Shown here in pieces: positions 8,914 to 47,068 of a stretch of 64,000 bases of DNA. The stretch covers positions 1 through 64,000 of the IMG/VR virus record IMGVR_UViG_3300035208_005635; one strand, written 5' to 3'. The DNA is from a virus. Its lineage: Duplodnaviria; Heunggongvirae; Uroviricota; Caudoviricetes. How positions within the stretch are numbered: the first letter of the stretch is position 1; each line of letters starts with the position of its first letter. A program made the translations under genes and the position numbers. The notes under the pieces are model-generated. The model worked only from the letters and a program-made list of their open reading frames with translations. It was not told the origin of the DNA and ran no database searches.

Positions 8914-8990
8914 ATTATATACCCTTTTTGTATTTTTGTCAATAGCCTTCTAGCCTAATATTTGCGGGTTTTTCTTAGTCTGTGGATAAC
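8914..8990 (-). promoter_or_regulatory. conserved sigma70-type promoter P1
   Basis: In gene orientation: GTTATCCACAGAC, then a 28-nt insert, then TTGACA-N17-TATAAT. The -35 hexamer maps to 8937-8942, the -10 to 8914-8919 and the upstream box to 8978-8990. Confidence 0.6.
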
Positions 8991-8992
8991 TT

Positions 8993-9274
8993 TTACCACT
9001 TATACCGGCCAATAAATTTAAAAGGATTTTTAGCAATTTCTATTAAAATTTTAATATTTTCGTGGCAATCCCGACAGAGAGCTATTAAATTATTAGGGTT
9101 ATTGTCCCCTCCGTGAGAACGGTATTTTATATGATGAGGGTCTATAGCACGCTTGCCGCAGTATTCACATCTCCCGTGACAACGCTCCCACACTATTCTT
9201 CTAACTTCTTTAGGGATTGGTGTTCCTGGTTGCATTGTTCTTTTTATTTTCTGAAATCGGTTTAACGAAATCAT
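8993..9274 (-). CDS. HNH endonuclease
   Basis: CEYCGKRAIDPHHIKYRSHGGDNNPNNLIALCRDCHENI matches the HNH motif. The start probably lies at an internal Met (around 9238) because the full ORF overlaps the upstream gene. Confidence 0.7.
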   Translation of the reverse strand: MISLNRFQKIKRTMQPGTPIPKEVRRIVWERCHGRCEYCGKRAIDPHHIKYRSHGGDNNPNNLIALCRDCHENIKILIEIAKNPFKFIGRYKW

Positions 9275-9596
9275 ATAAAGTAGTTTGATTATCGGGAGGC
9301 TTTTGCTGTTTGGCTTTCAGCTTAGGGTCTAATAGCGTCTTGCTAAAAACTGCGACTCTAACTAACGAATTATCTATTTTCTTGTAACTTTTATATTTAT
9401 TAGCAAAATTTATAATATCAGCACAAGAAATATTAAAAGATTTTCCTTCAATTATAATATTCAAAGAATCGTAGTTTTTTAAATGCTCTATGTTTACTCC
9501 TATTCCGTGAGCGTGATAACCGTCAGCAGTCCATTTGTAAAAACTTCCTGCTCCATAGAAACAACTTCTAATTCGAATTTTTCTGATTTCTGGCAT
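9210..9596 (-). CDS. hypothetical protein
   Basis: 128 aa ORF. Its 3' end overlaps the HNH ORF. Confidence 0.35.
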   Translation of the reverse strand: MPEIRKIRIRSCFYGAGSFYKWTADGYHAHGIGVNIEHLKNYDSLNIIIEGKSFNISCADIINFANKYKSYKKIDNSLVRVAVFSKTLLDPKLKAKQQKPPDNQTTLYDFVKPISENKKNNATRNTNP

Positions 9597-9691
9597 AATT
9601 AAGCTCTGCTTTGCTTCTGGCTCTTTGAAGATTCTTCCGGCTTTCTTCGTCTATCATATCCCAAAGAGTTAGAGGTCTAGGCGGTTGATAC

Positions 9692-10012
9692 TTAAATTTT
9701 TTCGTATTCCTCTCTTGAAATCTCTTGTCCATATTTTTTAGCTAATAAATCTTGGGCTTTTATTCCCTCGGTTATTATTTGTTTAGTCTCTACTAAGAAA
9801 TACCTACTTTCTCCGTCATACCCTATCACCTGAATCTTTTTATGGATACCAAACATTAAAATTAACTGATTGACTGTTTCTTGATTTTCAGGCAACTCCC
9901 AATTAGTAAGCAGAGGCTTTTCTGAGATTTCGTGCTGTGTCTCTTTGTCAATAATTTTTTGTTTACTCATATAATTTTTTCTGTGTATCGGCATCTGGGG
10001 AAATTCGAGCAT
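9692..10012 (-). CDS. hypothetical protein
   Basis: 106 aa ORF. Confidence 0.35.
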   Translation of the reverse strand: MLEFPQMPIHRKNYMSKQKIIDKETQHEISEKPLLTNWELPENQETVNQLILMFGIHKKIQVIGYDGESRYFLVETKQIITEGIKAQDLLAKKYGQEISREEYEKI

Positions 10013-10173
10013 CCAAACCAGAAACCGTCATTAAATTTGCTTTTTCTTTTTATCATTTCTGAATGACAGTAAGGACAAGTTTTTTCTTCTATTTTATTCT
10101 CTTCTGATTGGGCTTTTAGTCTTAGCATCAGTTCTCCAAATTTTCTTTCCTCTCCTTGTAAGTCTTCTATCAT
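9967..10173 (-). CDS. small protein with topoisomerase-type C4 zinc finger
   Basis: CPYCHSEMIKRK ... GCSNFPRCRYTE resembles the Topo I-type Zn-ribbon (zf-C4_Topoisom). Confidence 0.45.
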   Translation of the reverse strand: MIEDLQGEERKFGELMLRLKAQSEENKIEEKTCPYCHSEMIKRKSKFNDGFWFGCSNFPRCRYTEKII

Positions 10174-10184
10174 ATAAACATTTT

Positions 10185-10409
10185 CTAAATATTATGGGCT
10201 TTATTTTGTTCTTTTACTTTTTTACTCTTTAGAAACTTATTAAGTGCTGGTTTAAAGCCGCAATTTCCGCATATACGCTCCTCTACAACGCCTTCCTTAC
10301 CTTTCCATATAAAAGGACTAAAAGAGAATTTCCAATTAGTCTGCCCGCATTTAGGGCATTTTTTCGGATAATTAACCTTCTCTAAGAATTTTGTTTCAAA
10401 AGCAGGCAT
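10185..10409 (-). CDS. Zn-ribbon small protein
   Basis: CPKCGQTNW ... CGNCG cysteine pairs. Confidence 0.35.
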   Translation of the reverse strand: MPAFETKFLEKVNYPKKCPKCGQTNWKFSFSPFIWKGKEGVVEERICGNCGFKPALNKFLKSKKVKEQNKAHNI

Positions 10410-10413
10410 AATA

Positions 10414-11280: not shown

Positions 11281-11429
11281 GAGTTAGTATCTCTGATACA
11301 AAACCTTCTACCCTATTTCCATTTACTAATCTTCCGTCTTTTGAAAGTCAAGCTGTTTCATATCCCGGGTCGAGTAAAATTCTTTGCAAAGATTCTCGTA
11401 AATCTTCTTCAAATTTTTTTACAGCTTTT

Positions 11430-12486: not shown

Positions 12487-14103
12487 TTATTGCATTTTTG
12501 GTTCGGGTATATCTTCTAGGCAAATTGTTGCCTCTACGGTTAAGAACATCTCTGCAATACTGCTGGCATTTTCTAGAGCACATCTAACAACTTTGGTTGG
12601 GTCGATAATACCCTCGTCTTTCATACTTACATAGCTTTCAGTTTCTGCATTATAGCCAAAGTCTTTATCATCACTATTTAAAATGTCGTTCATTATAACT
12701 TCTGATTTTAATCCGCCATTTTCGAGAATTTGCTTGAAAGGTTTTTCTACCGCATCAAAGACAATTTCTACACCTTTCTTTTCATTAGCGGTTAAAGTTG
12801 GGTCTTCTAAAAGTTTAGAATTTTGTCTTGCTCTTATTAAAGCAGTTCCTCCGCCAATAACAATTCCTTCCTCAAGAGCTGCTTGAGTTGCACTAATGGC
12901 GTCTTCTATTCTAAGTTCTAAATCACGCTGTTCAGTTTCACTATTAGCACCAACATTTATAATACCAACAACTCCTGAAAGTTTACCTAAACGGTCTCTT
13001 AGATTTTCTTTGTTGAAATCAGATTTTTCTTCGTCTAGGTCTTTTTGCAATTCTGCTATTCTCGATTCGATTAATTTTTTATCTCCCGCACCTTCTATAA
13101 TAGTAGTAAAGTCTTTTGTGGATTCTACTTTTCTTGCTCTTCCTAAATGAGATATTTCTATATTCTCTAGCTCTAGGCTTAAATCCTGAGTGATAACTGT
13201 TCCGCCAGTTAAAATTGCAACATCCTGCAAGAAAGACTTTTGCTTCTCTCCGTAGTAAGGAGCTTTGACAACTAGACTTCGATAGCTACCTTTAACATTA
13301 TTAACAATTAAAGAGGTAAGGGCATCTCCTTGCATATCACCGCAAAGAATAACAAGCTCTCTAGTCCCTGCGGTAGCTAACTTTTCTAAAATAGGAAGTA
13401 ATTTACCCATTTCAGAAATAGCTTTATCAGTGATTAAGATATAAGCTCCTTTTCCGTTATTATCAAATTCTCCTGTTTTCTTATCTCTGTCTGTAATCAT
13501 ATAAGGAGAAACAAATCCTTTGTCGAATCTGAAACCTTCAACCATTTCTACTTCTATGGTATTAGTGTTTCCTTTCTCAACATTTAAAATACCTGCCTTG
13601 CCTACTTTATTCATAGCTTCGGCAATTAACTTTCCTATATCGGCGTCTTTAGCTGAAATAGTGGCAACATTTTCCATTTGAGCAGTATCTTTTATCTCAA
13701 CAGAAATTTTCTTTAATTCGTCTACTAGACTTTTTACGCCTTTCTTAATACCTTTTTTAATACCGATGACACTCATACCTAATTCAGTATATTTCATTCC
13801 CTTAGAAATCATTTCTTGGGCTAGAACAACAGCAGTAGTTGTTCCGTCTCCTGCTTCATCATTTGTCTTAATAGAGGCGGATTTAATTAGTTTGGCACCC
13901 ATATTCTCAAATCTGTCTTTCAAGTCGATTGCTCTGGCAACAGTAACTCCGTCCTGATTAATGTCTGGTTCTCCCCATTCTTTTTCAATAACAACATTTC
14001 GACCCTTAGGACCGAGAGTGACTTTGACAATGTTGGCGAGGGTATCAACACCTCTCTTCATTGTTTCTCTTGAAAGTTTGTTTTGCTGAATTTGCTTTGG
14101 CAT
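12487..14103 (-). CDS. groL: chaperonin GroEL (Cpn60)
   Basis: 538 aa. [18 protein letters not shown]-binding signature and the characteristic equatorial/apical pattern. Ends ...PKMQ. Confidence 0.85.
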
Positions 14104-14557: not shown

Positions 14558-15490
14558 TTAATATCCTTGAATGCCTCCTGCGGTATCAACCGGTATAGGA
14601 CCATACATATTATTAGGAACATAGGAACCATCCCATCTCTCAACTCTTTCTTTTTCAATTTCTAATTGAATTTTCTTTAATTCTATATCCCAATTTTTAG
14701 CAACCTCTTCATTATATTTTCTAATACCTTCACCGTCTAAGGCTTTGGCTTCAGCGTTTAGTTTAGCGGCTTCTTTTTCTCCTTCAGCCTTAGTAATTAA
14801 AGATTGCTTTTCGGCTTCAGCCTGCTTAACTAATTTTTGAGCTTCTTGTTCTGTAATTAATAGTTCTTGTTCTTTCCGCTTAACTTCTTGAGCTCTTTTC
14901 ATTGTTTCTTCAATTTGAGCTTCAAAAGCGTCAGACCAATTATAATTAGTTACTTTGACTTCTGTTATTTGAAGAGGATAATTACCAGTCGATAAATCGT
15001 TTCTAAACTTTTCAGCTATTTCAGACCTAATTTTTTCTTGGTTATCGGCAATATCATATATAGTATACTCACCTATCGTTTTCTTAGCACTTTCTTTTAA
15101 TGTTTGTAATACAATAGATTTTATTTTATCTTCGCCGGTATTTCTCCACATCTCTACTAGCCTGCTCTCATCATATTTATAAAATACTGATAATCCAACA
15201 CCGATAGTCTGATTATCTTTTGAAATTGCACCATCTTCGCCTACTTCAATAGTATAATCTACTTGAATAGGTCTAATAGTTATTTCTTTGATTTTCTGAA
15301 ATAGAGGGACTCTCCAATTCACACCTTCACCTTTTACTTCATCACTTAAAGCTCCCATTGTGAATACTAAACCTCTATTGCCTGAATCTACTATCTGAAA
15401 AGGCTTAAAAGTTAGAAATAGGATAATGGCTAAAAAAATAATAATAGCCCCTACGCCAATTTTAGCCTCTTTTGAGTAACCATCTAACAT
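14558..15490 (-). CDS. SPFH/band-7 (prohibitin/HflC-like) membrane protein
   Basis: N-terminal TM helix followed by an SPFH core (FQIVDSGNRGLVFTMGAL ... VNWRVPLFQKI ...) and a long Ala/Glu/Lys coiled coil. Confidence 0.65.
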   Translation of the reverse strand: MLDGYSKEAKIGVGAIIIFLAIILFLTFKPFQIVDSGNRGLVFTMGALSDEVKGEGVNWRVPLFQKIKEITIRPIQVDYTIEVGEDGAISKDNQTIGVGLSVFYKYDESRLVEMWRNTGEDKIKSIVLQTLKESAKKTIGEYTIYDIADNQEKIRSEIAEKFRNDLSTGNYPLQITEVKVTNYNWSDAFEAQIEETMKRAQEVKRKEQELLITEQEAQKLVKQAEAEKQSLITKAEGEKEAAKLNAEAKALDGEGIRKYNEEVAKNWDIELKKIQLEIEKERVERWDGSYVPNNMYGPIPVDTAGGIQGY

Positions 15491-15662: not shown

Positions 15663-15974
15663 TCAAAAAATTCCGACTATTTTGTCTAAGGATACTAAAA
15701 CAGTGTCTTTGTCTATTTCATAGCTCTCAGAGAATTTTATTTTAGCTCCTTCTTCTCCTTCTACTATTAATTCTTTCACTAAAACATTAGAAAAGTCTCC
15801 TAGCTTATCTTTCATCTCTTTTGTCATCCACCAATCTTTACTAATAACAACTCCTTCGTTCTTTTTTGAACCTCCTGATATTTCTATACCAGAAGAAGAA
15901 ACAGGTTTTTCTAATTTAACAATAATTGCATTTACAGGTCTAAACATAATTTTAATTTTCTGTCTGTTCATCAC
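15663..15974 (-). CDS. possible GroES-like co-chaperonin (Cpn10)
   Basis: 103 aa with a Cpn10-like pattern (IVKLEKPVSSSGIEISGG ... GVVISKD ... VLVSLDKIVGIF). Confidence 0.35.
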   Translation of the reverse strand: MMNRQKIKIMFRPVNAIIVKLEKPVSSSGIEISGGSKKNEGVVISKDWWMTKEMKDKLGDFSNVLVKELIVEGEEGAKIKFSESYEIDKDTVLVSLDKIVGIF

Positions 15975-16287
15975 CGTGAATTATTCTTTTTAATTCACGC
16001 TGTGACCAGATAAACTTTTTAATATTAACTTTTGGGTCTTCAGAAATAAATGTATTAAGTAGTTCTTCTAGCCCACCTTCATTTTTAAAAACGAAATTCT
16101 TTCTATTAGGATTAAGGTCGTCTGGATATTGTTCTGCTCTTAGGAGTTCTACCCCAAAACATAATAAAAAAGCCGACAGAACAAAATCTGCGGTTTTGAA
16201 TACGCCCTCGTCACTATTGAAAGTTCCTTTTAAATTAGGAATAAAAGGTTTTCGACTACTATTTGGTTTGTATTTTGTAATACTCAT
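15952..16287 (-). CDS. hypothetical protein
   Basis: 111 aa ORF downstream of conserved promoter P2. Confidence 0.4.
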   Translation of the reverse strand: MSITKYKPNSSRKPFIPNLKGTFNSDEGVFKTADFVLSAFLLCFGVELLRAEQYPDDLNPNRKNFVFKNEGGLEELLNTFISEDPKVNIKKFIWSQRELKRIIHGDEQTEN

Positions 16288-16341
16288 ATTTTGTTAATTT
16301 ATAGTAATTTTATCGAATATATCCTAATCATTTATATTTAT

Positions 16342-16389
16342 AGTATAGCGTATTTTTACTAAAAAGTCAATACCTAATCTGTGGATAAC
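16342..16389 (-). promoter_or_regulatory. conserved sigma70-type promoter P2
   Basis: In gene orientation: GTTATCCACAGATTAGGTA then TTGACT-N17-TATACT. The -35 hexamer maps to 16365-16370 and the -10 to 16342-16347. Confidence 0.65.
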
Positions 16390-16815: not shown

Positions 16816-16818
16816 AGG

Positions 16819-16889
16819 TGCTTGGGGTTAGAATCGAACTAACTTCCGGCGAGTTTCAGTCGCCTGCTTTTCCATTAAGCTACCCAAGC
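16819..16889 (-). tRNA. tRNA-Phe (anticodon GAA)
   Basis: Hand-folded cloverleaf. Acceptor gcttggg/cccaagc. D-arm gctt..aagc. Anticodon stem ggcga/tcgcc with loop ctGAAac. T-arm gttag-ttcgatt-ctaac. Discriminator A. Confidence 0.85.
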
Positions 16890-17236
16890 TCTTTTAGAAA
16901 CGCTCTACCGTTGAGCTATTTCTCACCACCGAAGCTGGAGAATTATCGGAGTCTAACCGATGTCTTTTCTAATACGTCAGAGATAGTGGAATTGAACCAC
17001 TTTTTTACGGTTCCAAACCGTATATAATACCGTTATATCAATCCCTGGTAACGGTGTTCTTCCGTATCACCGCCTAAAAGAATAGATAGAAATTGTAATA
17101 TTAAAAGTATAATTAAAAATTTTTTCATATCCTCCTTGCTTATGTGGGAAGAGTGAGAGTCGCACTCCGCGGGGATTGAAACAATCACTTGGTCTACAGC
17201 CAAGTCTCGCCCTCTACGAGTCTACCTGCCCTTTTT

Positions 17237-21622: not shown

Positions 21623-21830
21623 ATGGTTTTATTGCCTCATTAAGTTCCTTAAGTTCCTTGCTAAATTCTTCCTGAGTGATGTTTTCAGGATTAACTTGGT
21701 CGAATTTTTCATTCATTTTAGTAGCAATATCAACAGCCATTTTATTTTGTTCTTTATAATAATTAAGAACTAAGAAAGGAGCTTTAACTAGAGCGATTAA
21801 TACTCTAAAGATTTTTTTTATAAATTTCAT
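21540..21830 (-). CDS. hypothetical protein (overlaps its neighbours; may be shorter)
   Basis: 96 aa ORF. Confidence 0.25.
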   Translation of the reverse strand: MKFIKKIFRVLIALVKAPFLVLNYYKEQNKMAVDIATKMNEKFDQVNPENITQEEFSKELKELNEAIKPYADERKTTSTDLSDMQKSDEANLRGKV

Positions 21831-22665
21831 AATTGCAAGGGACAGGAATAGGAGAGGGTTGCTTAACTAAGTCTTTCATTCTCTCAAAAGCCTGTTCCAT
21901 TATTCTTCCTAAAGATTTGCTTTTGACTTCTTTCTTTTTCTTTTCTGGTTTATCGAAATCAAAAACATATTTTGTATAATTATCTAGAATAAAACAAATT
22001 TCCTGAAGAGCGAAGAAAACAAAATAAGACAGAGATAAAGATTCGGCTAAAGATTTAATAGGAAACCAAATCAAAATTAAGAGAAACCAAAATATAGAAG
22101 TCGTCACGCAATAAGAAAACATTGCTTTTGCTCTAATTCTTTTTAGAAGCTCAAACTCTAGCAGACATTTAATTTTTTCAAATTTATATATTTGAGGATT
22201 TTTTCTTCTAAGAAAAATCTCGTCATAATCAACCGCTTTCATAATCAATTTTAATAATTGGATAACTTCCGCAATAATAATAAAAGTAAAAATTAAATAA
22301 AAAAGTATTGTTACTATCAACGGTGATTTAGGTCCTTTGGTTAAAATAGAAACAGCAGGATAAAAAACAAAGACAAAAAGAATAAGACTGGCAATCATTA
22401 TCTTTTTGAAAGTTACTTGGACTTTATATTTGTTCTTAGTATATTTTGATTTCTTAACGAAATGCAAAATTACTCTTTCTGTTATTTTAAATAGAAACTT
22501 ATCTAGAGGTCTTAAAATTTTATTGTTGAAAGCGGTATTAGGAAGTCTGATTTCTTGAGGAAGTTCTTCCTCTCCTTTGAAATTATTAGCGTCTATTTCT
22601 ACAAATTCTACAAACTTTTCTTCTTCCTTATCTTCCTTGTTTTCTTTTTTAATTTCTTGAGTCAT
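21805..22665 (-). CDS. hypothetical polytopic membrane protein
   Basis: Acidic N-terminus followed by at least four hydrophobic helices. Lies downstream of conserved promoter P3. Confidence 0.45.
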   Translation of the reverse strand: MTQEIKKENKEDKEEEKFVEFVEIDANNFKGEEELPQEIRLPNTAFNNKILRPLDKFLFKITERVILHFVKKSKYTKNKYKVQVTFKKIMIASLILFVFVFYPAVSILTKGPKSPLIVTILFYLIFTFIIIAEVIQLLKLIMKAVDYDEIFLRRKNPQIYKFEKIKCLLEFELLKRIRAKAMFSYCVTTSIFWFLLILIWFPIKSLAESLSLSYFVFFALQEICFILDNYTKYVFDFDKPEKKKKEVKSKSLGRIMEQAFERMKDLVKQPSPIPVPCNYEIYKKNL

Positions 22666-22690
22666 ATTTTTGTCATTTAATTATATTAGT

Positions 22691-22738
22691 ATTATAGCGT
22701 ATTCTGCCTTTTTTGTCAATAGCTAATCTGTGGATAAC
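22691..22738 (-). promoter_or_regulatory. conserved sigma70-type promoter P3
   Basis: In gene orientation: GTTATCCACAGATTAGCTA then TTGACA-N17-TATAAT. The -35 hexamer maps to 22714-22719 and the -10 to 22691-22696. Confidence 0.65.
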
Positions 22739-22742
22739 TTTT

Positions 22743-25700
22743 TTAAACTCCTTGGGGTATATTCATTGGAGGCTTTGCTATTTTCGGGTCTTGAGCAGGG
22801 TCTTCTTCAGTATCTTTTGATTCTGTAGGTCCATAAAGAGATTCTTCAAACTTACAAGTATCTTCATTAACTATGAAAAATCTTTCTCCGCTTTTTCCGT
22901 GTCTATTTTTATCTATGTTTATTCTAGCCCATTTCTCTAGTTCGCGATTTGCCATTCTCTTTCTCCAGAGTAAAGCAACTATATCAGCATCTTGTTTTAT
23001 TGCTGAACTGTCTTTCAAGTCTTCCATAGTCGGCTTGTCATTATCGTTTCCTAATTTTTTAATATGACAAATTAAAACTACAGGAACCATTAGCTTTCTA
23101 GCAAGCAATTTGCAATATCTAACTATATCAGAAATTTCTATTGTTCTATTTCTACTGTCTCCCGAGGCAAAGAAATGCAAGTGGTCGATAAATATAATTC
23201 TGCAACCAAAGTCTTTAACTGCTTTTTCTGAAACAGAACCTAATAATTGCGTATTTATTTTTTCGTAGCCCGAATATAAATAAATAGGTTTGCTAGCGAT
23301 ACCTTTATAAACTTCTTCTAGCTTAGAAAATTCTCCTTTGGCGTCTTTTTTAATTAACTCTGATTGGCGAACGTTTCCTTGAAGCATCATAAATCTCTCA
23401 GCTATTTCTTCAGGAGTCTGTTCTAAACTAAAATACATTACTGGTATAGGGTCTGGATTATTTTTTTCGTCTTTGTGGTTGACAATATTCATAACCATAT
23501 TTTGCGTAAAGAAAGTGTTATGATTAATAATAAAATTTTCGAGAATATACAATTGGTCTTTATCAAGAGAAAATCCATAGTAGTCTCCGACAGGCCACTC
23601 CCAAATTCTAAATCTAGTAGTCAACCAATTTATGTCTGTGACTTCTTTTTTTACTATTTTTCTTTTTACCTTTAAAGGTATTCTTTTTACGTCTCCTGAA
23701 ATATAAACTCTATAACTTTGAAAGTTTCTTCCCAAGCAAGTGGTTGTTCTTTCTTTTAGAGTAGAGGCAAAGAACCCCAAAGACCGAGCCAAGAAAATAA
23801 CGTCTTCACAAAGCTGTTTATTCTTATTAGAAAAAGAGTATCCTACTTTTTCTTTATTACCGTCACTGTCTATTAAGCCTGCTAATAATTCTAGTCTATT
23901 TTTCTCAGAGTTTATCTTATAATTTTGTGGTATATGCTTATTCTCTATGAGATTTTCTTTCTTTAAGAGGCTTAACAAAGATAGGGCAGAACCGTATCCC
24001 TTCTTGCCTGTTTTATATATGTATTTTCCTTTGTGTGTTTTGTTCACACCTTCAAATTTCTTTTCTCTCGTTAAACAATAATACTTTGATTTATTGTTTG
24101 GTTGGTTTTTTGTAACCAGTTGAAGATTTAATCTATTTGCGTAATCTCTTAAATATTTTTCTATCTCAAAATCAGCAGAGGTAACACAAGGTCCTGAGCT
24201 TGTTCCATCACCTAACCATAACCCCAGAAAGTAAGGTTCAAGAGATACTTTTTTCTCTTTAAACTTTATTGATTTTGGGTGTTCAAGATAATAAACGTGT
24301 TTTCTCTTACTCGCAAGTTTTATCCAGTTATCTATTGTGATATCGATTGTATCTGGGTAGTGCGGATACTTTTTAGTATTTTTCTTAAGGTGTAGCAAAT
24401 GATTTCTGTTAACCACAAAATTCTCTGCACCTTTTTTAGGTTCAACTTTCCACATTTTTTCTCTGCCTCTTGCTAATTTTAAAACCGTCCTCGGAGTGCT
24501 GTCAGGACCCATTAACTTGTCTCCAATTTTTATGTCCTCTACTTTTTTTAAAGTTCCGTTATACATTAACACCTTTGTTCCCTTAGCGTGGCACTTTCCA
24601 ACGCCAGTGTCTCCAGAAATAACAATTAGATTTCCGTCTCGCATTCCACGCCATACATCGTCTAATAATTTCCAACCGGTAGACATTCCTCTGAGGACAT
24701 TTGGATTCTTCATTTCTTCCATTGCGGTTTTAGCAACTTCTTTTATTTTTTTTATATGCTCGCTTTCAACGGTTATTTTTTTAGCGGAGTTGTATAAATT
24801 ATTAAAATCGTCTACTGTTTTTTTCTTAACCGCAAAAAAGTCATTTAAGTCTTTTTGTCCAGGCTCTTTTGGTATTTCTATTATTCGACATCTGCTGGCT
24901 CCTAATTTTTCTATAGCGAGTAAATTTCCTTTTTGACCTGCCTCATCGTTGTCATAACAGTTATGAGAAATTACTTTTTGTTCTGTAATATAGCTATGGT
25001 CGTCTTTTACATCTATATTATAAGTTTCTTCATCTATTACCTGTTTAATAGATATTTTTCTTACTCTATTTAAAAGATAAAAATTTTCCCAGAATTTTTT
25101 CATCTGAACTTGACATTTTTTACTAGGAGATATCTCAGCAAGACTAACTGTATATCTTTTTTTCCAAGTTTTTTCTTTATACGACCAATCGTGTGTTGTA
25201 AATCCGTAACCACACTGTAGAGCAAGAATTTCAAAGAATTTAATAATAGACTCGTTTGTATTACTAAATTTAATGTATTTATATTTTTTATCTATTGTTC
25301 CGTCTGAATCTATTAGACCTTGCAATATCTCTTTCTTATTAAGGGAGCTACGAAATATATCATAAGAAACACTTTTCATTCTAGGCATCATTTTAGATGA
25401 GTCTCCTGCAACCTCTTGATAAAAATTCTTAAACCCATATAATCTAGAATCATACGAATATAAACATCCTATATTTCCTTTCTCTACTGTCGAATATTTT
25501 ATTTTATATTTGTCAAAGAATTTTTTTACTCTTTCCAAAATATGCTTTTTTGTTTTTGTGTTATATGCCAATTCAAATCTATACTTTCTTGAGTAATGTC
25601 CGTCTCCTAAAAACAAACCCAAAAGATAAGAGAAGTCTTTATCTTGAATCATCTTCGTGTTAGCAATATCTATAAATTCTTCCCCAAACTCAGAACCTTC

Positions 25701-28010
25701 TTTTAATCTCCCCCTTTCGTCTCTTTCTGAAATCTTTTGAGTTATTCTTCTTTCAAAAAAGCTAAAGGATACTCCTAACTCCGAACCAAATTTAGGAAAA
25801 AGTAAATAGTCTCCTTCTCGAATTTCTCCCGCTTTTTTCCAAATAGGCTCTTTCAGAAATTCTCTTCTATTTTTTATATACTTAATATTTTCTTTTTCAT
25901 AAACAAGAATAGGATGATTACTTGTAACCCAATTCTCAGTATTTTTAGTTTGACCGACAATAGAAAACTTTCTCATTTCTCCTGAATACACATTCTTCAT
26001 TACTTTATAAACCTCTTTTAAATTTCCTATGTGAGTCCAAACACTATCAGAGACCTTAATATCCTCAATATTTTTTAATCCTTGACGAGTATAAATCTTT
26101 GTTCCTTTCTCATAGCATAAATAAATACTATTCACTTTCTGCATAGCATCTGCCCACTCTTGTTTGAATGTCTGAGCTCCACAGGTTACGCTTACAACAT
26201 TCTCCCAACCTTCCTGATAAAGGCTCATTGCGTCTATTTCTCCTTCGGTAATAACTAATTTATTCGCTCCTTTGATTACATCTCCGTTAAACAAAACCAT
26301 TTTTCCTCCGTGGACATTCATCATTTTAGGAGCTTCTGGGTCGAGGGGATTTCCTCGGTATCTAATATTTACCACTTTGCTGTTTTCAAATATTGGAATA
26401 GAAATGCTGGTTCCCGTCCAACCTATTTTAAAATGCTCTAATGTTTCAGGTAATAGCTTTCTAGTAACTGTTAAATATTCATAAATTTGACCCGTTACTG
26501 AGTTCTTGTCGTCTTTCTTCTCAAGTAGAGTCTTGTGATACTCTTCAATCGAGGTCTGGTATCTCTTCATTTCTACCTCGCTAGGACCTTTATTCTCCTT
26601 CTCCTGAGGTTTTTCTAGCTCTTGCGGGGATTTTACTGTCTCAGATAAATTACGCGAATTAGAGCCATTAGAGGGCTCAATTTCAGGTTTTGTATAATCA
26701 TTATAAAATTTCGCTAATGTTATTATATTTCCAGATTTACCGCAATTATGAACAGCACAACCTGAGACATTATAAGTATGACTATCTTCTACGGTTAAGT
26801 CATAAACATCTACATTTTTAACTTCTGTAGTAACTATTTTCTTTAAAAATTTTATTCCTTTTACAGAATTTTCTGAACAATCCCAACGAATAGTCCAACA
26901 TTTTTTATGGTGAACTCCTTTTTTATCTATTTTTTCTTCCTCTGAATTTATAGAAGCAGTTCTTCCTAATCCCCACAAGGCAAAATATATCTGAATAGCT
27001 AATTTCTTTGATACTGTTTTGCTAGAATTTTGTTTTTTAAACCCGTCTCCTGCAAAATACCCTTCTAAGATGTTTGGTAAAATATTAGAAGATAGAAGAC
27101 AGTTGGGTATATGTTTATTTTCTGCCCCCCTCCCGCAATTCTTTTCAAACCATCTTTCTAAGTAAACTCCAAAAACTTGAAGACTCTCTCCATTAGGACT
27201 AATAGAGGATTGAAGAGAGTTGAATCCATATTTCGTAAATAGTTTTTTTACTCTGTCTATGTTCTTCTGCTCTTTTTTATGAAAGGCAAAAGTAATACAT
27301 CTAGAAGATTTAGCTCCGTCTGCAATATATAATCCTACGCACCACCAAAATTCTCCGTCATTAAACATTTCTTCTGTAATAACTTTCGGCACAGGTCCTT
27401 TGGCTGATAAAATATAACTAGAAGCATCGCCACAATAATTAGGATAAAATCTGCTTACTTCATAAATATCTCGCCTATCAATTATGGGCATCTCCAAACC
27501 ATATAAAGGTTTTATTTTATCTGCCTCCAGCCAAATAGATTGTTTTGCTAAAGATTTAAAATTTCTTTTTTGATTCTTTAACTTTTTACTTCTAGGATTA
27601 CAGGAAAAAACAGATAAGAGATGGTTGGGAGTGCAAGTTATGTCTAGTAAATCTATAGAAGAATTACAAGACAAAGTAGTAAGCTTTCCTGTATATTTTC
27701 TCGAGATAGTATTGAGAACCTCTTTGTATCTTCCTTCTTTTGTTAAGACAAAATCGCCCTTTTTTATGTCTCTAATTTCTTTTATTCCGTTGCTTGTTCT
27801 TACCAAAGAATTTCCTGTGAAACATTTATGACAAAAATATAAACCTTTAGTGCTAATATAAAAATGGGTCCAATCTTCTTTATTTTCTCTGCAAAAAGGG
27901 CATTTATTAGTAATAATCTGGTCGCCTTCTGCTCTAGTTTTTAGTCCTTTGCTTTGAAGATAGTTAGTTATCTCTGAGGCAGTGGGATTAATGAAGTTTA
28001 AAGGAGTCAT
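22743..28010 (-). CDS. DNA primase-helicase (CHC2 zinc finger + Toprim + DnaB/gp4-like helicase) interrupted by three inteins
   Basis: The extein totals about 650 aa. It has a CPFC..H..C zinc finger, a Toprim domain (VITEGEIDAMS ... YDNDEAGQ), a P-loop ISGDTGVGK|T and a later helicase region (IFIDHLHF, LICHIKK). Three Hint insertions begin at CFTGNSLV, CYEKGTKI and CHAKGTKV; each ends in HN followed by C, C or T. Confidence 0.8.
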   Translation of the reverse strand: MTPLNFINPTASEITNYLQSKGLKTRAEGDQIITNKCPFCRENKEDWTHFYISTKGLYFCHKCFTGNSLVRTSNGIKEIRDIKKGDFVLTKEGRYKEVLNTISRKYTGKLTTLSCNSSIDLLDITCTPNHLLSVFSCNPRSKKLKNQKRNFKSLAKQSIWLEADKIKPLYGLEMPIIDRRDIYEVSRFYPNYCGDASSYILSAKGPVPKVITEEMFNDGEFWWCVGLYIADGAKSSRCITFAFHKKEQKNIDRVKKLFTKYGFNSLQSSISPNGESLQVFGVYLERWFEKNCGRGAENKHIPNCLLSSNILPNILEGYFAGDGFKKQNSSKTVSKKLAIQIYFALWGLGRTASINSEEEKIDKKGVHHKKCWTIRWDCSENSVKGIKFLKKIVTTEVKNVDVYDLTVEDSHTYNVSGCAVHNCGKSGNIITLAKFYNDYTKPEIEPSNGSNSRNLSETVKSPQELEKPQEKENKGPSEVEMKRYQTSIEEYHKTLLEKKDDKNSVTGQIYEYLTVTRKLLPETLEHFKIGWTGTSISIPIFENSKVVNIRYRGNPLDPEAPKMMNVHGGKMVLFNGDVIKGANKLVITEGEIDAMSLYQEGWENVVSVTCGAQTFKQEWADAMQKVNSIYLCYEKGTKIYTRQGLKNIEDIKVSDSVWTHIGNLKEVYKVMKNVYSGEMRKFSIVGQTKNTENWVTSNHPILVYEKENIKYIKNRREFLKEPIWKKAGEIREGDYLLFPKFGSELGVSFSFFERRITQKISERDERGRLKEGSEFGEEFIDIANTKMIQDKDFSYLLGLFLGDGHYSRKYRFELAYNTKTKKHILERVKKFFDKYKIKYSTVEKGNIGCLYSYDSRLYGFKNFYQEVAGDSSKMMPRMKSVSYDIFRSSLNKKEILQGLIDSDGTIDKKYKYIKFSNTNESIIKFFEILALQCGYGFTTHDWSYKEKTWKKRYTVSLAEISPSKKCQVQMKKFWENFYLLNRVRKISIKQVIDEETYNIDVKDDHSYITEQKVISHNCYDNDEAGQKGNLLAIEKLGASRCRIIEIPKEPGQKDLNDFFAVKKKTVDDFNNLYNSAKKITVESEHIKKIKEVAKTAMEEMKNPNVLRGMSTGWKLLDDVWRGMRDGNLIVISGDTGVGKCHAKGTKVLMYNGTLKKVEDIKIGDKLMGPDSTPRTVLKLARGREKMWKVEPKKGAENFVVNRNHLLHLKKNTKKYPHYPDTIDITIDNWIKLASKRKHVYYLEHPKSIKFKEKKVSLEPYFLGLWLGDGTSSGPCVTSADFEIEKYLRDYANRLNLQLVTKNQPNNKSKYYCLTREKKFEGVNKTHKGKYIYKTGKKGYGSALSLLSLLKKENLIENKHIPQNYKINSEKNRLELLAGLIDSDGNKEKVGYSFSNKNKQLCEDVIFLARSLGFFASTLKERTTTCLGRNFQSYRVYISGDVKRIPLKVKRKIVKKEVTDINWLTTRFRIWEWPVGDYYGFSLDKDQLYILENFIINHNTFFTQNMVMNIVNHKDEKNNPDPIPVMYFSLEQTPEEIAERFMMLQGNVRQSELIKKDAKGEFSKLEEVYKGIASKPIYLYSGYEKINTQLLGSVSEKAVKDFGCRIIFIDHLHFFASGDSRNRTIEISDIVRYCKLLARKLMVPVVLICHIKKLGNDNDKPTMEDLKDSSAIKQDADIVALLWRKRMANRELEKWARINIDKNRHGKSGERFFIVNEDTCKFEESLYGPTESKDTEEDPAQDPKIAKPPMNIPQGV
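23517..24593 (-). mobile_element. intein 3 (359 aa, LAGLIDADG) inside the helicase Walker A motif
   Basis: The extein reads GDTGVGK-[intein]-TFFTQ. Begins at CHAKGTKV. Contains YFLGLWLGDG and LAGLIDSDG. Ends IINHN with a +1 Thr. Confidence 0.75.
24960..26117 (-). mobile_element. intein 2 (386 aa, LAGLIDADG) within the Toprim domain
   Basis: Begins at CYEKGTKIYT. Contains LLGLFLGDGH and LQGLIDSDGT. Ends ISHN with a +1 Cys (CYDNDEAGQ). Confidence 0.75.
26745..27824 (-). mobile_element. intein 1 (360 aa, LAGLIDADG homing endonuclease) within the primase zinc-finger region
   Basis: Begins at CFTGNSLV. Contains LYIADGAKS and GYFAGDGFK. Ends VHN with a +1 Cys. Confidence 0.75.
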
Positions 28011-28021: not shown

Positions 28022-29026
28022 TTAATTTATTAAAGTTGTGCCGGTTAAGACACCTTCAATGTATTTTATATAGCTTTCTTGGTCTTCTTTGCTTATTTTA
28101 GAATAAAAATAACCAAAACATTCGCCGAGTATCTTGTCGTTACTGAAAAACCAGACAGGAGGACGGCTGTGATTTTTGTCTTTGTGCCAAGAATCTCTGT
28201 AAAAGCCGATAATTGCTAAGCTAATATCTAAAGGGCTGAAACTTAACAAAGCTTTCTTTAAAGCAATATCCGCAGGGTTGCCTATTAAAATCTTTCCTGA
28301 AGTGGCGTTGACTGAAACGAACTTCCAGTAAATCTCAAATATTCTTTTTCTAATTTCTGAAGAAAACTCTCCCCACTGTTTTATATCTTCCTGAAGAGGT
28401 GATTTAGAAATCATTTCAGGAGATTTTTTGGGTGAATCGAGAGGGAGAGTCTCTCTCTCTCTTTTCTTATTATTATATATATTATTATTGTATGTGGTTT
28501 TCACATAGCTTGGTATGTGATTTTCACATAGGTCTTCTGTGATTTTCACATAGCCTATGTGATTTTCACATACGTCTTTATTTTTGACAAAATCACCTTT
28601 TTGTTTTAATTTTATTTTCCCTAAAATTACTGTATCATACCAAAGTTGGGTAGTCTTGATATATTTAGTTTCAGGGTCTCTTTCTATTAATCCTTTTCTT
28701 TGAAGATTTGACAGAATGTTAAAAATAGACCACTGTTTAAATCCTAGCATTTGACTAATTTTTTTCTTTGAAGCATAGCACCACCCAGGGACTCTACTGC
28801 CAGGATTATTAGAAAGATTATAAATACTGTCTGCTACGCAATATTCATTCAGAGATAAGTCTAGTTTCCTTCTTGCCTCGTGTAATATAAGGGAATAACT
28901 AAGAACTTCTTTTTCTACTTCTTTATTTTCTTTTGGCATAGAATCACAAGTAAGGTTAATAAAAATACAGTATTCGGTTGTCATTGCTATTGCCCCCCAC
29001 TTGCGGTGATTAGCAATAGATAACAA
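28022..29026 (-). CDS. replication initiator-like protein (lambda O-like) with winged-helix region and internal origin iterons
   Basis: 334 aa. HTH-like region (QMLGFKQWSIFNILSNLQRKGLIE). Four palindromic iterons inside the coding sequence encode a repeated ...CENHI... peptide. Confidence 0.5.
   Translation of the reverse strand: MLSIANHRKWGAIAMTTEYCIFINLTCDSMPKENKEVEKEVLSYSLILHEARRKLDLSLNEYCVADSIYNLSNNPGSRVPGWCYASKKKISQMLGFKQWSIFNILSNLQRKGLIERDPETKYIKTTQLWYDTVILGKIKLKQKGDFVKNKDVCENHIGYVKITEDLCENHIPSYVKTTYNNNIYNNKKRERETLPLDSPKKSPEMISKSPLQEDIKQWGEFSSEIRKRIFEIYWKFVSVNATSGKILIGNPADIALKKALLSFSPLDISLAIIGFYRDSWHKDKNHSRPPVWFFSNDKILGECFGYFYSKISKEDQESYIKYIEGVLTGTTLIN
28451..28575. repeat. candidate origin: (CT)6, an AT-rich tract and four palindromic iterons TATGTGAtttTCACATA at about 21-bp spacing
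   Basis: GTGATTTTCACATAG at 28517, 28539 and 28559, and GTGGTTTTCACATAG at 28494. tattattatatatattattattg at 28466-28489. ctctctctctct at 28451-28463. Confidence 0.6.
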
Positions 29027-29113
29027 CCAAATACTGTATTTTATGCAAGTGGGAGTAATCTAATTTTTAGACAATTTAAGTATAGCATATTTTAGGAATT
29101 TAATCAAATATTG

Positions 29114-29184
29114 AGGGAGGCCTAGGAATCGAACCTAGATAGCTTGCACCACAAGCAAGTGCTCTACCATTGAACTAACCACCC
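29114..29184 (-). tRNA. tRNA-His (anticodon GTG)
   Basis: Acceptor gggtggt/gcctccc with one U-U mismatch. D-arm gttc..gagc. Anticodon stem cttgc/gcaag with loop ttGTGgt. T-arm ctagg-ttcgatt-cctag. No encoded G-1. Confidence 0.75.
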
Positions 29185-35236: not shown

Positions 35237-35277
35237 TTATTTATTTTTAATGAATTATATTTTAATAACTTATATAG

Positions 35278-35324
35278 ATTATAGCATATCTAGGAAAAAA
35301 GTCAATAGCTAATCTGTGGATAAC
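35278..35324 (-). promoter_or_regulatory. conserved sigma70-type promoter P4
   Basis: In gene orientation: GTTATCCACAGATTAGCTA then TTGACT-N16-TATAAT. The -35 hexamer maps to 35300-35305 and the -10 to 35278-35283. Confidence 0.65.
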
Positions 35325-44058: not shown

Positions 44059-44448
44059 TTATAATTTTACCTGATAGCTTTCACCGCTTATTTTGTCGGT
44101 TACAGCTATTGCACTATAGCCCTCTGCTTGGGCATATTCTGCGAATTGAGCATAGCTACCGACTTCTTCCTCATTAGCCTCGTTTACAAATTGTCTTTCG
44201 TCTATAGGGCAATTAGGGACATCAGAGGATAGACGCTTAATTCTAAAAACTTTTCCAACGCTCTCTAGCTCTTCTATGTCTTCTTCCTCTTCTTCAATGC
44301 CTCTAAGCTCTAAAAAGTCCTTAATCGCACTCGATAGCTTCAAAGCGGATAAATTATGGTCGGTCGCTATCATTTTTATACTTTCCTCAAAAGTTCCCTT
44401 GCTTATTAACTCAGCAAGGTTTTTGACTGTGTAGTTTTTGGTCTCCAT
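44059..44448 (-). CDS. hypothetical acidic protein (METK start)
   Basis: 129 aa. Begins ATGGAGACCAAA. Confidence 0.4.
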   Translation of the reverse strand: METKNYTVKNLAELISKGTFEESIKMIATDHNLSALKLSSAIKDFLELRGIEEEEEDIEELESVGKVFRIKRLSSDVPNCPIDERQFVNEANEEEVGSYAQFAEYAQAEGYSAIAVTDKISGESYQVKL

Positions 44449-44498
44449 ATTATTTTTAGAAAAAATTAAAAACTTATTGAGATTTTAATTTTTCTTTA

Positions 44499-45068
44499 TT
44501 ATTTCCATAACTTGTAAAAGCTATGGTTTCCTATTTTAATAGTAAAATACTCGTCTTTGCACCAACTCAAATCCGTTGAATGTTCTATGCGGAGATAATG
44601 GTCTGCCTTTCCTGTTATGTCAACGGGGATTTCGTCAATCATTGTTTCTATACTTTTTAAAACTTCTTTTTGGCTATTATTTATATCAATTTTTCCTCTG
44701 AGAAAATCTCTCGCTCTTGCGTATAAATAATTACCATCGGAAAAAGCTGTGAACTGATTTTCAGCCGATATAATTTCATAAATATTAGTATTATATTTAT
44801 CCGCTCGGTTGAATATGACATTTATTACCGCCTGCCGTCCTCGCTCGCCTTCTCCTAATGTTTCAGCAAATACTACTGCTATAACTTTAATTTTTTTGTC
44901 ATAGCTAATATTAGTTCTATAATCTTTGTCAAAATTGCGAATTAGCACTCCTTTATTTATCGGCAATCTCGGAGGAAAAAATGTTTCTTCCGTCATTGCT
45001 CCATAAACAGGAAAGCTAATTATTATCATTATAAAACTAAAAAGTATCACTTTGATAGATGTTTTCAT
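44499..45068 (-). CDS. secreted cell-wall hydrolase, SleB-like (Hydrolase_2)
   Basis: Signal peptide. VIAVVFAETLGEGERGRQAVINVIFNRA resembles the SleB-family motif. Confidence 0.5.
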   Translation of the reverse strand: MKTSIKVILFSFIMIIISFPVYGAMTEETFFPPRLPINKGVLIRNFDKDYRTNISYDKKIKVIAVVFAETLGEGERGRQAVINVIFNRADKYNTNIYEIISAENQFTAFSDGNYLYARARDFLRGKIDINNSQKEVLKSIETMIDEIPVDITGKADHYLRIEHSTDLSWCKDEYFTIKIGNHSFYKLWK

Positions 45069-45981
45069 ATTATTTTGAGGTAATTTGACGATGAAGAGAA
45101 GTTAATCTAACATATTCAGGATTCTCTTTATTGTCTTTACCGTTAATAATAAGAATATCAATTTTTTTGTTGAGAGTTCTCAACGCTTCTGTCTTGTTCA
45201 TATTTTTTTTATTTTTATTTTTATGGGATTATATTCCCAAAATTATAAAGCCAATCACCTCGCTTCAAATCATCTATCTAAAATTTGATAGATTATTGAA
45301 TGCCTTATGGTTTAGCGATAATTGGCTTTACTATTTGCGTATATAATTTAGCCGCTTTTGCCTATAATATAGGCTTCAAGCAGATAAAAAACAAAACAAA
45401 AGTTAAAAACTGATTAGACAGCTTTTAACTTTAATTTGATTTCTATTTATGGTCAACTCTATTTATCCATCCGGCAAATTAAGTTTTTAAATAATCAAAC
45501 GGGGAAAGTCAAAAAATTAAATTCTTAACTTCCCGCCGTTTGCTTATTTATAATTAAAAATAGTCTAATTATTAGCCCGCAAGTGTAATTTACGAAGTGG
45601 TTTTATTTGGGAAAATAAATTTCTCAAATGTCTCTTTTAAGGCCAGCCTCAAATAAATGAGGTAAAGATTTATATTAGCTTAGTAGCTTCAAAATCTCTT
45701 AAAGCTTCGTTTCTCCGTTTTTGAGTGGGGCACTTCTTTTCCCTCACCTCAAATACAATCCTTTCACCTTCAACTTGCTTAACTAATAACTATTTTTTTT
45801 AATGTTTTTAAATATCAATCAATAATGTTTTAAGTTGTCCATTTTTTAACTCTTCTTAATTAAACAACTTTAATAACTTATAATCTAATTATAGCTTATT
45901 TTTCATTTAATGTCAACCCTAAGCGGGGGCGAAATAGGCTATTTTTTAGCTTAATATTAGCGGTTATTTAAGAGGTTAAAA

Positions 45982-45994
45982 GTTATCCACAGTC
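45982..45994 (+). promoter_or_regulatory. isolated DnaA-box-like element GTTATCCACAGTC (copy A)
   Basis: Truncated copy of the promoter upstream element. Lies in the non-coding strand-switch region. Confidence 0.4.
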
Positions 45995-46046
45995 TTTCGC
46001 TTAAAACGGCATAAATAAAAATAAAAAAATAATATTAAAAAACGGA

Positions 46047-46060
46047 ATTATCCACAGTCT
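46047..46060 (+). promoter_or_regulatory. isolated DnaA-box-like element ATTATCCACAGTCT (copy B)
   Basis: Second truncated copy, 65 bp downstream of copy A. Confidence 0.4.
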
Positions 46061-47020
46061 AATAATAAACCAATCAAAAATTTTAGCCTTTTCTGTCGCT
46101 TAACTCTACACAATTAAAAAACTGATTGGCGGCGTAAACTACACAAAAAGCAAAATCAAAAAAACGGAAATCAAAAACAACTAAAAGCTAATAAATATAA
46201 ATACTATTTCGCAGTTTTCTAACACCCGCCCGCATAACAAAAAATTGACAGAAAATAAAATAAGTAGCGATAAAAAGACAAATAAAACGGCAAGCGGGCT
46301 ATTTGAGAAGAGAGAAAAAAGTGGTGAGATTTTTAATTATTGTCAATTAAATATCTAAAAAACAAGATAAGCAAAAAACAAAATGAGAGCTAAAACATAA
46401 TGAGTAAAAAAAGAATATAATATAATAAACATAAACATTTCCGCAATAATAGAATTCTCAGAGAAATTGAAAGCATATAGAGAGATAAAAGTAAAAGAGC
46501 ATAAGAGAATGAGGGGGCGGATATTAGATGTAAAAAAACTGATTGATGTTAAATAAGCAAATAATAGGCAGATAAATGCCGATAAATATTAAACGATTGG
46601 CTAACATTCGCTTACGCATAGCATAGACAGATAGACATATAATAGGCAGGTAGACGAGCATTAGGCTAAGACAGGCTATTCTCGTAGCTTTGATATTAGC
46701 CTATAATACAGCCAAAAAGAACACTGCTAATAATAGCCACTAATAGCTAATATTAAACAATAGCCATTCTATTGCCTTTAACCGACCCACTAGAATGGCG
46801 TAGAATAAATAAATAACAATAAGTCCGCATAAGAGATATCTTTCAGAGATTCCCTCGTTGATAGCTAATATAAGGCATATATACCCCCCTATAAATATCT
46901 AAAGGGTTAATTTATAACAATATCAATGATAGCCTTTCAATTTCTCTAGAATTTTTAATAACCCGATTAGTTTTTTAATTTTAATAAAAAGCATATAATA
47001 TATGGCTAATATCAGATAAA

Positions 47021-47068
47021 GTTATCCACAGATTAGGTATTGACTTTTTTTGTAATTTTTGCTATGCT
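47021..47068 (+). promoter_or_regulatory. conserved sigma70-type promoter P5 (plus strand)
   Basis: GTTATCCACAGATTAGGTA then TTGACT-N17-TATGCT. The -35 hexamer is at 47040-47045 and the -10 at 47063-47068. AT-alternating repeats follow before the ATG at 47145. Confidence 0.6.

Follow-up and report, generated by a model that had tools for sequence, protein, structure and literature searches.

What reads a DnaA-box sequence that stands, in one orientation and at nearly one distance, in front of promoter after promoter of a phage genome? The question is raised by positions 1 to 64,000 of the IMG/VR record IMGVR_UViG_3300035208_005635 (Caudoviricetes), the 64,000-nucleotide (nt) stretch that we call the window. 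It is part of a 98.8-kb metagenomic contig with a GC content of 33%. An earlier note on this DNA had described a family of strong promoters that share an upstream box with a DnaA-box sequence in it, and both the number of copies and shuffled controls bear this out. We propose, with a probability of about 0.6, that the box, at about -53 to -45, is bound by host DnaA, which modulates host RNA polymerase at early and middle promoters of the phage.

Results

A phased upstream box in a promoter family

The box, with the 9-mer TTATCCACA at its core, accompanies promoters P1 to P6; a further strong promoter of the window lacks it. In window positions, these are:

8914-8990, minus strand: P1, GTTATCCACAGACTAA at 8975-8990 with the 9-mer at 8981-8989, a 38-nt linker (out of register), TTGACA at 8937-8942, a 17-nt spacer and TATAAT at 8914-8919; drives a 77-aa open reading frame (ORF) at 8647-8880
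16342-16389, minus strand: P2, 9-mer at 16380-16388, 9-nt linker, TTGACT at 16365-16370, 17-nt spacer, TATACT at 16342-16347; followed by a DUF5659 gene (15952-16287), then SPFH and GroEL-like genes (Pfam)
22691-22738, minus strand: P3, 9-mer at 22729-22737, 9-nt linker, TTGACA at 22714-22719, 17-nt spacer, TATAAT at 22691-22696; adjoins the 3' side of the primase-helicase gene and drives a 286-aa ORF (21805-22665)
35278-35324, minus strand: P4, 9-mer at 35315-35323, 9-nt linker, TTGACT at 35300-35305, 16-nt spacer, TGC-TATAAT with the hexamer at 35278-35283; begins 12 nt past the stop codon of a WGR-domain gene and drives a MoxR/vWA/PD-(D/E)XK operon
47021-47068, plus strand: P5, 9-mer at 47022-47030, 9-nt linker, TTGACT at 47040-47045, 17-nt spacer, TGC-TATGCT with the hexamer at 47063-47068; the first rightward promoter at the strand switch, driving a 106-aa ORF (47145-47465), small ORFs and tRNAs
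50338-50386, plus strand: P6, GTTATCCGCAG with the 9-mer TTATCCGCA (one mismatch) at 50339-50347, 10-nt linker, TTGACT at 50358-50363, 17-nt spacer, TGC-TATAAT with the hexamer at 50381-50386; followed by QueD/PTPS, radical-SAM, PolA and FolE genes; missing from the earlier note
45888-45916, minus strand: leftward early promoter, a perfect TTGACA-17-TATAAT with no DnaA box beside it

Exact copies of the 16-mer GTTATCCACAGATTAG lie at 16374-16389(-), 22723-22738(-), 35309-35324(-) and 47021-47036(+), and a fifth copy, at 8975-8990(-), differs from it at two positions. These five matches compare with 0.55 expected, and five or more were obtained in 0/100 dinucleotide shuffles. The exact 9-mer is present seven times against 0.47 expected, at five promoter sites and at 45983(+) and 46048(+), always in non-coding DNA (7/7), and the combination TTATCCACAG-N8-TTGAC four times against 0.00 expected. 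The sixth, degenerate copy (50338-50348(+)) lies 10 nt 5' of TTGACT-17-TATAAT. Oriented and aligned, four copies read AAA-GTTATCCACAGATTAG-(G/C)TA-TTGAC(A/T)-N16/17-(C/T)GC-TAT(A/G)(A/C)T. Taking +1 as 7 nt past the -10 hexamer, the 16-mer extends from -54 to -39 and the 9-mer from -53 to -45; the upstream placement given in the earlier note is retained, but its limits of -40 to -58 are not.

At 9/9 positions the 9-mer matches the DnaA-box consensus (TTATCCACA, or TT(A/T)TNCACA). The linker to the -35 hexamer is 9 nt in four window copies and 10 nt in one, and the fixed distance and orientation 5' of the -35 are those of a class I-like activator site. The box had also been likened to an UP element, a view that we abandon: UP elements are A/T-rich tracts at -40 to -60 (AAAWWTWTTTTNNNAAANNN), whereas 6 of the 16 positions of GTTATCCACAGATTAG are G or C and a short A-run ahead of it is the sole A-rich part. 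Near-identity of five copies had been claimed and applies to four, as the P1 linker contains an extra 29 nt. Apart from this insertion directly after the box, the P1 core (GCTATTGACA-17-TATAAT) resembles the other copies, which marks the box as a separable module. Two other interpretations of the box were rejected: an IHF site (WATCARNNNNTTR against TATCcACAGATTA, one mismatch), whose TTR part falls in the non-conserved linker, and the dyad TTATC-N4-GATTA, which most relatives lack.

P1 to P6 are all intergenic and have the hexamers, the 16-18-nt spacing and the co-oriented gene of sigma-70-type promoters, with TTGAC(A/T) separated by 16 or 17 nt from TATAAT, TATACT or TATGCT. As the earlier note had stated, each of its five promoter boxes is followed by such a core promoter and then by the gene it named; the -10 hexamer is TATAAT in P3, P4 and P1, but not in P2 and P5. 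A TGn extended -10 is present in three of the six (P4, P5 and P6), with CGC in P2 and P3 and GTA in P1. A scan for TTGACN-16/18-TATAAT-like promoters returned eight sites in 64 kb, two of them antisense within genes and the other six intergenic and in the same direction as the genes (8942, 16370, 22719, 35305, 45916 and 50358). With the promoter at 47040 added, 6/7 plausible strong promoters carry the box, co-oriented with transcription. The box is not obligatory for a strong promoter here, since the perfect promoter at 45916 has none adjacent.

What related phages keep

A clade of related phages from several metagenomes was defined by MoxR homologues with 56-90% identity; searching IMG/VR with the single MoxR protein yielded no related locus, and with the MoxR alignment one. 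The relatives share the gene order WGR, MoxR, vWA, nuclease and on to the primase-helicase. At two syntenic intergenic sites, after WGR and after the primase-helicase, they have TTATCCACA 8-10 nt 5' of a -35 hexamer, with TTGAYN as -35, TATAAT or TATACT as -10 and, as one-mismatch variants of the box, TTTTCCACA and TTCTCCACA; this holds down to relatives whose MoxR is 56-69% identical. The counterpart of P3 was found in L060, L062 and L067, and that of P4 in L058, L062, L068, L069 and L070. The 8-10-nt linker differs in every lineage (gaaattaggc, gataataaac, tcttaccctc, gacagatata, gaaaacaaca), so that the GATTAG-STA extension and the weak dyad are peculiar to the window's genome, in agreement with recent copying from one of its promoters to another. 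Judged from this comparison, it is the 9-mer, the following G and the register that selection keeps. The 16-19-bp box can therefore no longer be regarded as the functional unit that it had been taken for: relatives retain only (A)(G)TTATCCACA(G) and the 8-10-nt distance to the -35. That neither a linker nor a palindrome is conserved fits monomer-type recognition.

In L071, L072, L073 and L082 the homologous promoter directly past the WGR stop codon has no box, which makes the box an accessory module that is gained and lost rather than a core promoter element. The more distant relatives L065 and L066 (MoxR 39% identical) have no promoter-linked box.

Within the window, copies are identical across 32-72 nt, linker and parts of the spacer included. 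In an independent Logan assembly, contig 4035 of SRR18595299 (35.9 kb; L057) belongs to this phage and begins exactly at the P5 box (window position 47020), from which we conclude that the repeated promoter breaks short-read assemblies. Both observations would suit recently duplicated promoter cassettes in which the box has no function of its own and owes its identity to copying or gene conversion. Such duplication explains the identical linker here, but not why the 9-mer and its position survive in relatives at ~60-69% protein identity, and it leaves the recurrence in unrelated phages and bacteria, described below, without explanation; we consider it highly improbable.

In relatives, TTATCCCCCC-like motifs lie ahead of the homologues of the 45916 promoter. 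The relatives' divergent early promoters have, at a similar distance from the -35, a second upstream motif, TTATCCCC(C/A), in some cases in tandem (L062 2760-2775 and 1827-1850; L070 340-370), with ...TTTCGCCCCCGCTTAGGG at 45917-45940 as its counterpart in the window. This motif may be either a degenerate DnaA box or another kind of site.

The same layout in unrelated viral contigs

In IMG/VR the exact 16-mer gave 56 single-hit loci, mostly in unrelated oriC- or iteron-like contexts. It also led to L001/L027, L004 and L046, which have essentially no proteins in common with the window: across these and four further contigs only one shared protein was found, 27% identical, in L001/L027. L001, L004 and L046 each contain three to four co-oriented aagTTATCCACAg boxes before -35/-10 pairs, some with a poor -35. 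A pattern scan of IMG/VR for the box, a linker and TTGAC-N17-19-TATAAT, with consensus -35 and -10 hexamers imposed, gave the following numbers:

TTATCCACA, linker N8-10: at least 118 loci
inverted box TGTGGATAA, linker N8-10: 25 loci
TTATCCACA, linker N5-7: 17 loci
TTATCCACA, linker N11-12: 16 loci
TTATCCACA, linker N13-15: 9 loci

Inverted or shifted boxes are thus 5-13 times rarer than the forward box at N8-10. The N8-10 matches listed comprise ~108 distinct sequences from contigs with 27-53% GC. For linkers of 5 to 15 nt the numbers of distinct sequences are 1, 10, 5, at least 37, at least 44, at least 27, 11, 3, 1, 4 and 4; the mode is 9 nt, and the 9- and 10-nt linkers of the window lie on it. 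Positions left unspecified in the pattern are biased as well: among the viral matches listed, A is found at -2 in 80%, G at -1 in 66%, G at +1 in 60% and T at +3 in 53%. The genes downstream of these matches are diverse and of early-region type (ArdA, methylases, RecT, D5-type primase, SPFH, AAA_5, lysozymes).

This breadth bears on the suggestion that a phage-encoded regulator, such as the product of 47145-47465 or another early protein, reads the box and co-ordinates the operons. The 16-19-bp identity within the genome and the weak dyad TTATC-N4-GATTA could indicate a dimeric site, and the 47145 gene, behind a box-promoter and three 22-nt A/T repeats, looks autoregulatory. Neither extension nor dyad is kept in relatives, however, and the same box, flanks and spacing recur in unrelated viral contigs and, in cells, before lexA, nrd and recA. 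The 106-aa 47145 protein, taken for a ribbon-helix-helix protein in the earlier note, has no family or structure match in Pfam, PHROG or PDB sequences. In L062 the first gene on that side encodes 65 aa; from size and gene call alone, it is no obvious counterpart. A phage regulator is accordingly very unlikely in our estimate; where the earlier note had left the choice between DnaA and a phage regulator, these comparisons favour host DnaA.

Between P5 and the first rightward start codon (47070-47145), the three 22-nt A/T repeats have the sequence TATATAGATATATAAATATATA, and a similar run of AAAGATATA repeats occupies the equivalent place in L062 (1763-1800), upstream of the 65-aa gene. They may be operator or translation-control elements.

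Bacterial counterparts and the possible host

When one genome per GTDB species was scanned with the same pattern, at least 120 loci were found. Among the 120 matches listed, 64 have record titles that explicitly name Patescibacteria or the candidate phyla radiation (CPR), 19 are TPA-labelled 'uncultured Gammaproteobacteria', several of which share a CPR-type lexA promoter sequence, and about 10 are Bacillota or Clostridia, with a few from other groups. The first downstream ORF encodes LexA in 15/99, class II ribonucleotide reductase in 2/99 and RecA in 1/99 of the matches listed; many other downstream genes encode 60-75-aa proteins and have a GTGAAC-N4-GTTCAC (LexA-type) palindrome in the promoter spacer. 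The flank biases of the bacterial matches listed are those of the viral set, and as the pattern did not impose them, they point to the same factor in both. Several single genomes gave two to four loci and most 8-kb loci have one box (matches listed), which indicates that the box marks a specific regulon and not promoters in general.

In L239, L243, L275, L276, L282, L311, L313, L352 and L355, the lexA promoters combine the box with a spacer repeat GTTCG-N5/6-GTTCGG, while many small ORFs nearby in these genomes (Patescibacteria and similar) have GTGAAC-N4-GTTCAC instead. The two motifs may represent two operator types in the SOS regulon of Patescibacteria.

Could host RNA polymerase itself read the box, as a lineage-specific extended upstream element contacted by its alpha or sigma subunit, with no extra factor? 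The fixed position directly 5' of the -35, the strict orientation and the enrichment in Patescibacteria (64/120 among the matches listed) would agree with this. Yet a 9/9 match to the DnaA consensus would then be a remarkable coincidence, the cellular box is rare (usually one per 8 kb) and tied to the lexA, nrd and recA set rather than to promoters generally, and in relatives of the phage it is dispensable at homologous promoters; nor is it A/T-rich like UP elements. We regard direct reading by the polymerase as quite unlikely.

Binding by DnaA, which we favour, agrees with searches for DnaA itself. Queries for domain IV of E. coli and B. subtilis DnaA gave no tblastn match in the window or in any viral locus and found dnaA in four genomic loci (E 1e-17 to 1e-40). 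With no viral domain IV match, and with box-bearing contigs that share almost no proteins, a host factor is the parsimonious binder. No factor other than DnaA is, to our knowledge, known to recognise this 9-mer, and among host factors DnaA is, from these comparisons, the most likely binder. Two Patescibacteria loci with dnaA show the canonical domain IV signature PRQ...GGRDHTTAIHA. The DNA-contacting residues of DnaA are those seen in the E. coli domain IV-DNA structure; since they are kept, canonical DnaA-box recognition is expected for these two.

A host among the Patescibacteria, hinted at by the CPR enrichment among the matches listed from an unnormalised scan, has roughly even odds. GroEL homologues do not discriminate between lineages, as all cellular matches are ~50% identical, in Clostridia, Bacteroidales and Patescibacteria alike. 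From the JGI sample prefixes, we take the habitats to be an anoxic saline lake, deep groundwater and landfill leachate, which would likewise hint at such a host.

Orphan boxes and replication

Two boxes of the window stand apart from any promoter, and a separate locus resembles an origin of replication:

45983 and 46048 (45983-46056), plus strand: a pair of orphan DnaA boxes TTATCCACAGTCT, both pointing the same way and 65 bp apart, within the strand-switch region
28460-28578, minus strand: probable phage origin, four 17-nt palindromes TATGTGAAAATCACATA, 20-23 nt apart, then an A/T-rich tract and a GA repeat

The earlier note had seen the former as truncated copies; the boxes are present, but neither is followed by a -35/-10 pair in register, so that they are not truncated promoters. 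A comparable orphan box is found in L062 at 2630, in the opposite orientation relative to the early promoter. The palindromes lie within an ORF (28022-29026(-)) that matches O-like/DnaD-like initiator PHROGs, and 28460-28578 is probably, by its layout, an iteron origin of the lambda-O style within the initiator gene. Because an O-like initiator gene with internal iterons is the classic lambda-O arrangement, a DnaA-dependent origin would be unnecessary.

The boxes might nevertheless act mainly on DnaA or on replication and not on transcription, either by titrating host DnaA as datA does and arresting host initiation, or as a DnaA-dependent origin at the strand switch. The two orphans do lie in a 2-kb non-coding region at the minimum of the cumulative GC skew, and a replicating phage genome would multiply ~8 high-affinity sites. 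That minimum, however, simply mirrors the switch of the coding strand. Nor is the layout that of oriC: the boxes are dispersed singly, without a cluster, and only the two orphans lie at the strand switch. Titration or origin function also requires neither the strict 8-10-nt register nor a single orientation to the -35, and the phage encodes its own O-like initiator (with four internal iterons and the A/T-rich tract), primase-helicase and PolA. A replication origin at the orphan boxes is unlikely, and so, in our view, is an action of the boxes that is mainly on DnaA or replication. A DnaA-trio/oriC interpretation of the orphans was also set aside: apart from TAA repeats nothing speaks for it, and both an initiator and iterons are supplied by the phage itself.

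The phage genome around the promoters

The phage has no annotated or close cultured relative: megablast with 6 kb found no counterpart among cultured phages, and tblastn with PolA only matches of at most 35% identity. A leftward gene block (5.8-45.1 kb) encodes the primase-helicase, the O-like initiator, a PD-(D/E)XK nuclease, MoxR/vWA, a GroEL-like chaperonin, an SPFH protein, UDG and RadC. It is followed by the strand-switch region (45.07-47.14 kb, 2 kb non-coding) and a rightward block with tRNAs, QueD/QueE/FolE-type 7-deazaguanine genes and PolA; portal and head genes lie past the window. Box-promoters head operons all along the non-structural region, and no promoter-linked box was found in 5.7 kb of structural genes past the window. 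Rfam at the gathering threshold returned tRNAs only.

The 11 tRNA genes are located at 16817-17047, 29113-29184 and 48279-49916, and the GroEL-like, SPFH/Band-7 and queuosine-type 7-deazaguanine precursor genes at 12487-14103, 14558-15490 and 50416-58590. The primase-helicase (22743-28010(-)) has 1755 aa, compared with 648-662 aa in L058, L062 and L067 and 1063 aa in L059. It is enlarged by inteins, apparently three in number, with Hint, LAGLIDADG and Hom_end domains. FolE (55106-56896(+)) consists of GTP cyclohydrolase I fused to a phosphoribosyltransferase domain and has an intein with an HNH domain.

After the box-less promoter at 45916, ~380-480 nt (45380-45916(-)) hold no credible ORF and end in a hairpin, CAAACGG...CCGTTTG, that is kept in relatives with compensatory changes (L062 2779-3120, L070, L058); this stretch is a candidate for a non-coding leader RNA. 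In the same region of the window and of L062, the short motif AAAAACTGATTGG recurs. Between +1 and +15 of each box-promoter (16327-16341, 22676-22690 and 35263-35277 among them) there is a common ATATAA(G/A)T-like A/T motif, which could be a second regulatory site or reflect base composition.

Discussion

The promoters described here appear to be used by the sigma-70-type RNA polymerase of the host and would head early and middle operons of an uncultivated ~99-kb phage. Each would carry a single high-affinity box, A-G-TTATCCACA-G, in one orientation and with its 3' end 8-10 nt from the -35. DnaA would bind this asymmetric 9-mer as a monomer via domain IV, adjoining sigma region 4 and the alpha C-terminal domain. 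A monomeric helix-turn-helix protein that touches either of these would be expected to have just such a site: asymmetric, beside the -35 and fixed in register and orientation. Bound DnaA would then modulate RNA polymerase and tie phage gene expression to the DnaA or replication status of the host. Stimulation seems the more plausible sign because of the nrdAB precedent, the site outside the core elements and the pairing with a weak -35 in some phages, but repression or trapping of strong promoters is possible. What we infer from these data is that DnaA binds, that it contacts RNA polymerase, in which direction it acts and to which lineage, possibly Patescibacteria, the host belongs.

Several points speak against this reading. 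Its basis throughout is comparative sequence inference, and with the 64-kb window and ~5.7 kb beyond it, ~70 kb of the ~99-kb contig were seen, so a phage-encoded binder may be located elsewhere. Activator-dependent promoters have weak cores, whereas those of the window are near-consensus (TTGACW-17-TGnTATAAT). Near-consensus promoters normally do not need an activator, so that regulation may go either way, by stimulation or by repression or promoter trapping. The copy at 8975 is 29 nt out of register, and a box is missing next to the strong early promoter at 45916. In the window (TTATCCGCA) and in L062 (TTATCCCCA), position 7 varies and with it the CACA core, on which DnaA binding usually depends critically. 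The inverted box (25 loci) exceeds the spacing controls, and part of the association is therefore orientation-independent. Finally, the scans needed consensus hexamers, which makes the main counts lower bounds, and the taxonomy of the genome matches is perhaps biased by sampling.

A role of DnaA in transcription has precedents. DnaA bound to high-affinity boxes 5' of nrdAB can stabilise RNA polymerase, and nrdAB is activated or repressed from promoter-proximal DnaA boxes; polA is also regulated by DnaA (PMC8203912). Together with LexA, DnaA co-regulates the SOS genes uvrB and recN (PMC8203912), and it stimulates pR of phage lambda via contact with RNA polymerase (cited in PMC8203912). The bacterial gene set found here (lexA, nrd, recA) matches these known themes of the DnaA regulon, namely nrdAB, uvrB, recN and polA. 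Like the promoters described here, the DnaA regulons of E. coli (nrdAB, dnaA, polA, uvrB/recN) and B. subtilis have a single high-affinity TTATCCACA by a sigma-70 promoter. What differs is the one register (8-10 nt), the one orientation and the serial use at six promoters of a lytic-looking phage, together with at least 118 viral loci and cellular examples that come mainly from Patescibacteria.

Phage lambda, at pR and ori-lambda, likewise uses host DnaA as a modulator of transcription via RNA polymerase, as proposed here. In lambda the DnaA sites lie downstream of pR, the beta subunit is contacted and a single promoter is coupled to origin activation, whereas the sites of the window are upstream, at ~-50, and serve many operon promoters. 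The marbox of MarA, SoxS and Rob and the Ada site are similar in being asymmetric, with strict orientation and spacing to the -35 at ~-40 to -60. MarA/SoxS-type sites are read by one helix-turn-helix protein and usually accompany weak cores; the protein family is a different one and the site unrelated, and the cores here are near-consensus. The PeSL cassettes of T4 and the early promoter families of T5 and T7 also consist of multiple near-identical strong promoters for the host polymerase, dispersed over the early region, with identity past the hexamers. Those families have A/T-rich, UP-like upstream regions and are not known to carry a DnaA box, in contrast to the promoters here, of which the 9-mer alone is kept between relatives. 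An UP element, too, lies at -40 to -60 by a strong promoter, but the box is sequence-specific, asymmetric and dispensable in relatives.

DnaA boxes are already known, as are the action of DnaA as a transcription factor and its use by lambda. What appears to be new is a module in strict phase, its repeated deployment along phage genomes and the breadth of its occurrence; full-text literature searches found neither a DnaA-box-linked phage promoter family nor a DnaA promoter motif of Patescibacteria. If host DnaA does read the box, entire families of phage promoters would be linked to DnaA by a strictly phased site and give a direct read-out of the replication and growth status of the host. The phased box could also help to assign hosts to orphan viral contigs. 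The lexA, recA and nrd module would provide a first handle on transcription regulation in the huge, almost uncultivated Patescibacteria. As a more tentative proposal, which on present evidence we think less probable than not, a DnaA box 8-10 nt 5' of the -35 could be a general, previously undescribed module of Patescibacteria and their phages, in which DnaA controls lexA, recA and nrd and which phages, this ~99-kb one included, copied onto many of their early and middle promoters. DnaA would in that case be a major promoter-proximal transcription factor in reduced genomes that are poor in transcription factors, the box would mark the host lineage of uncultivated CPR phages, and phages would read or hijack the replication status of the host via the copied module.

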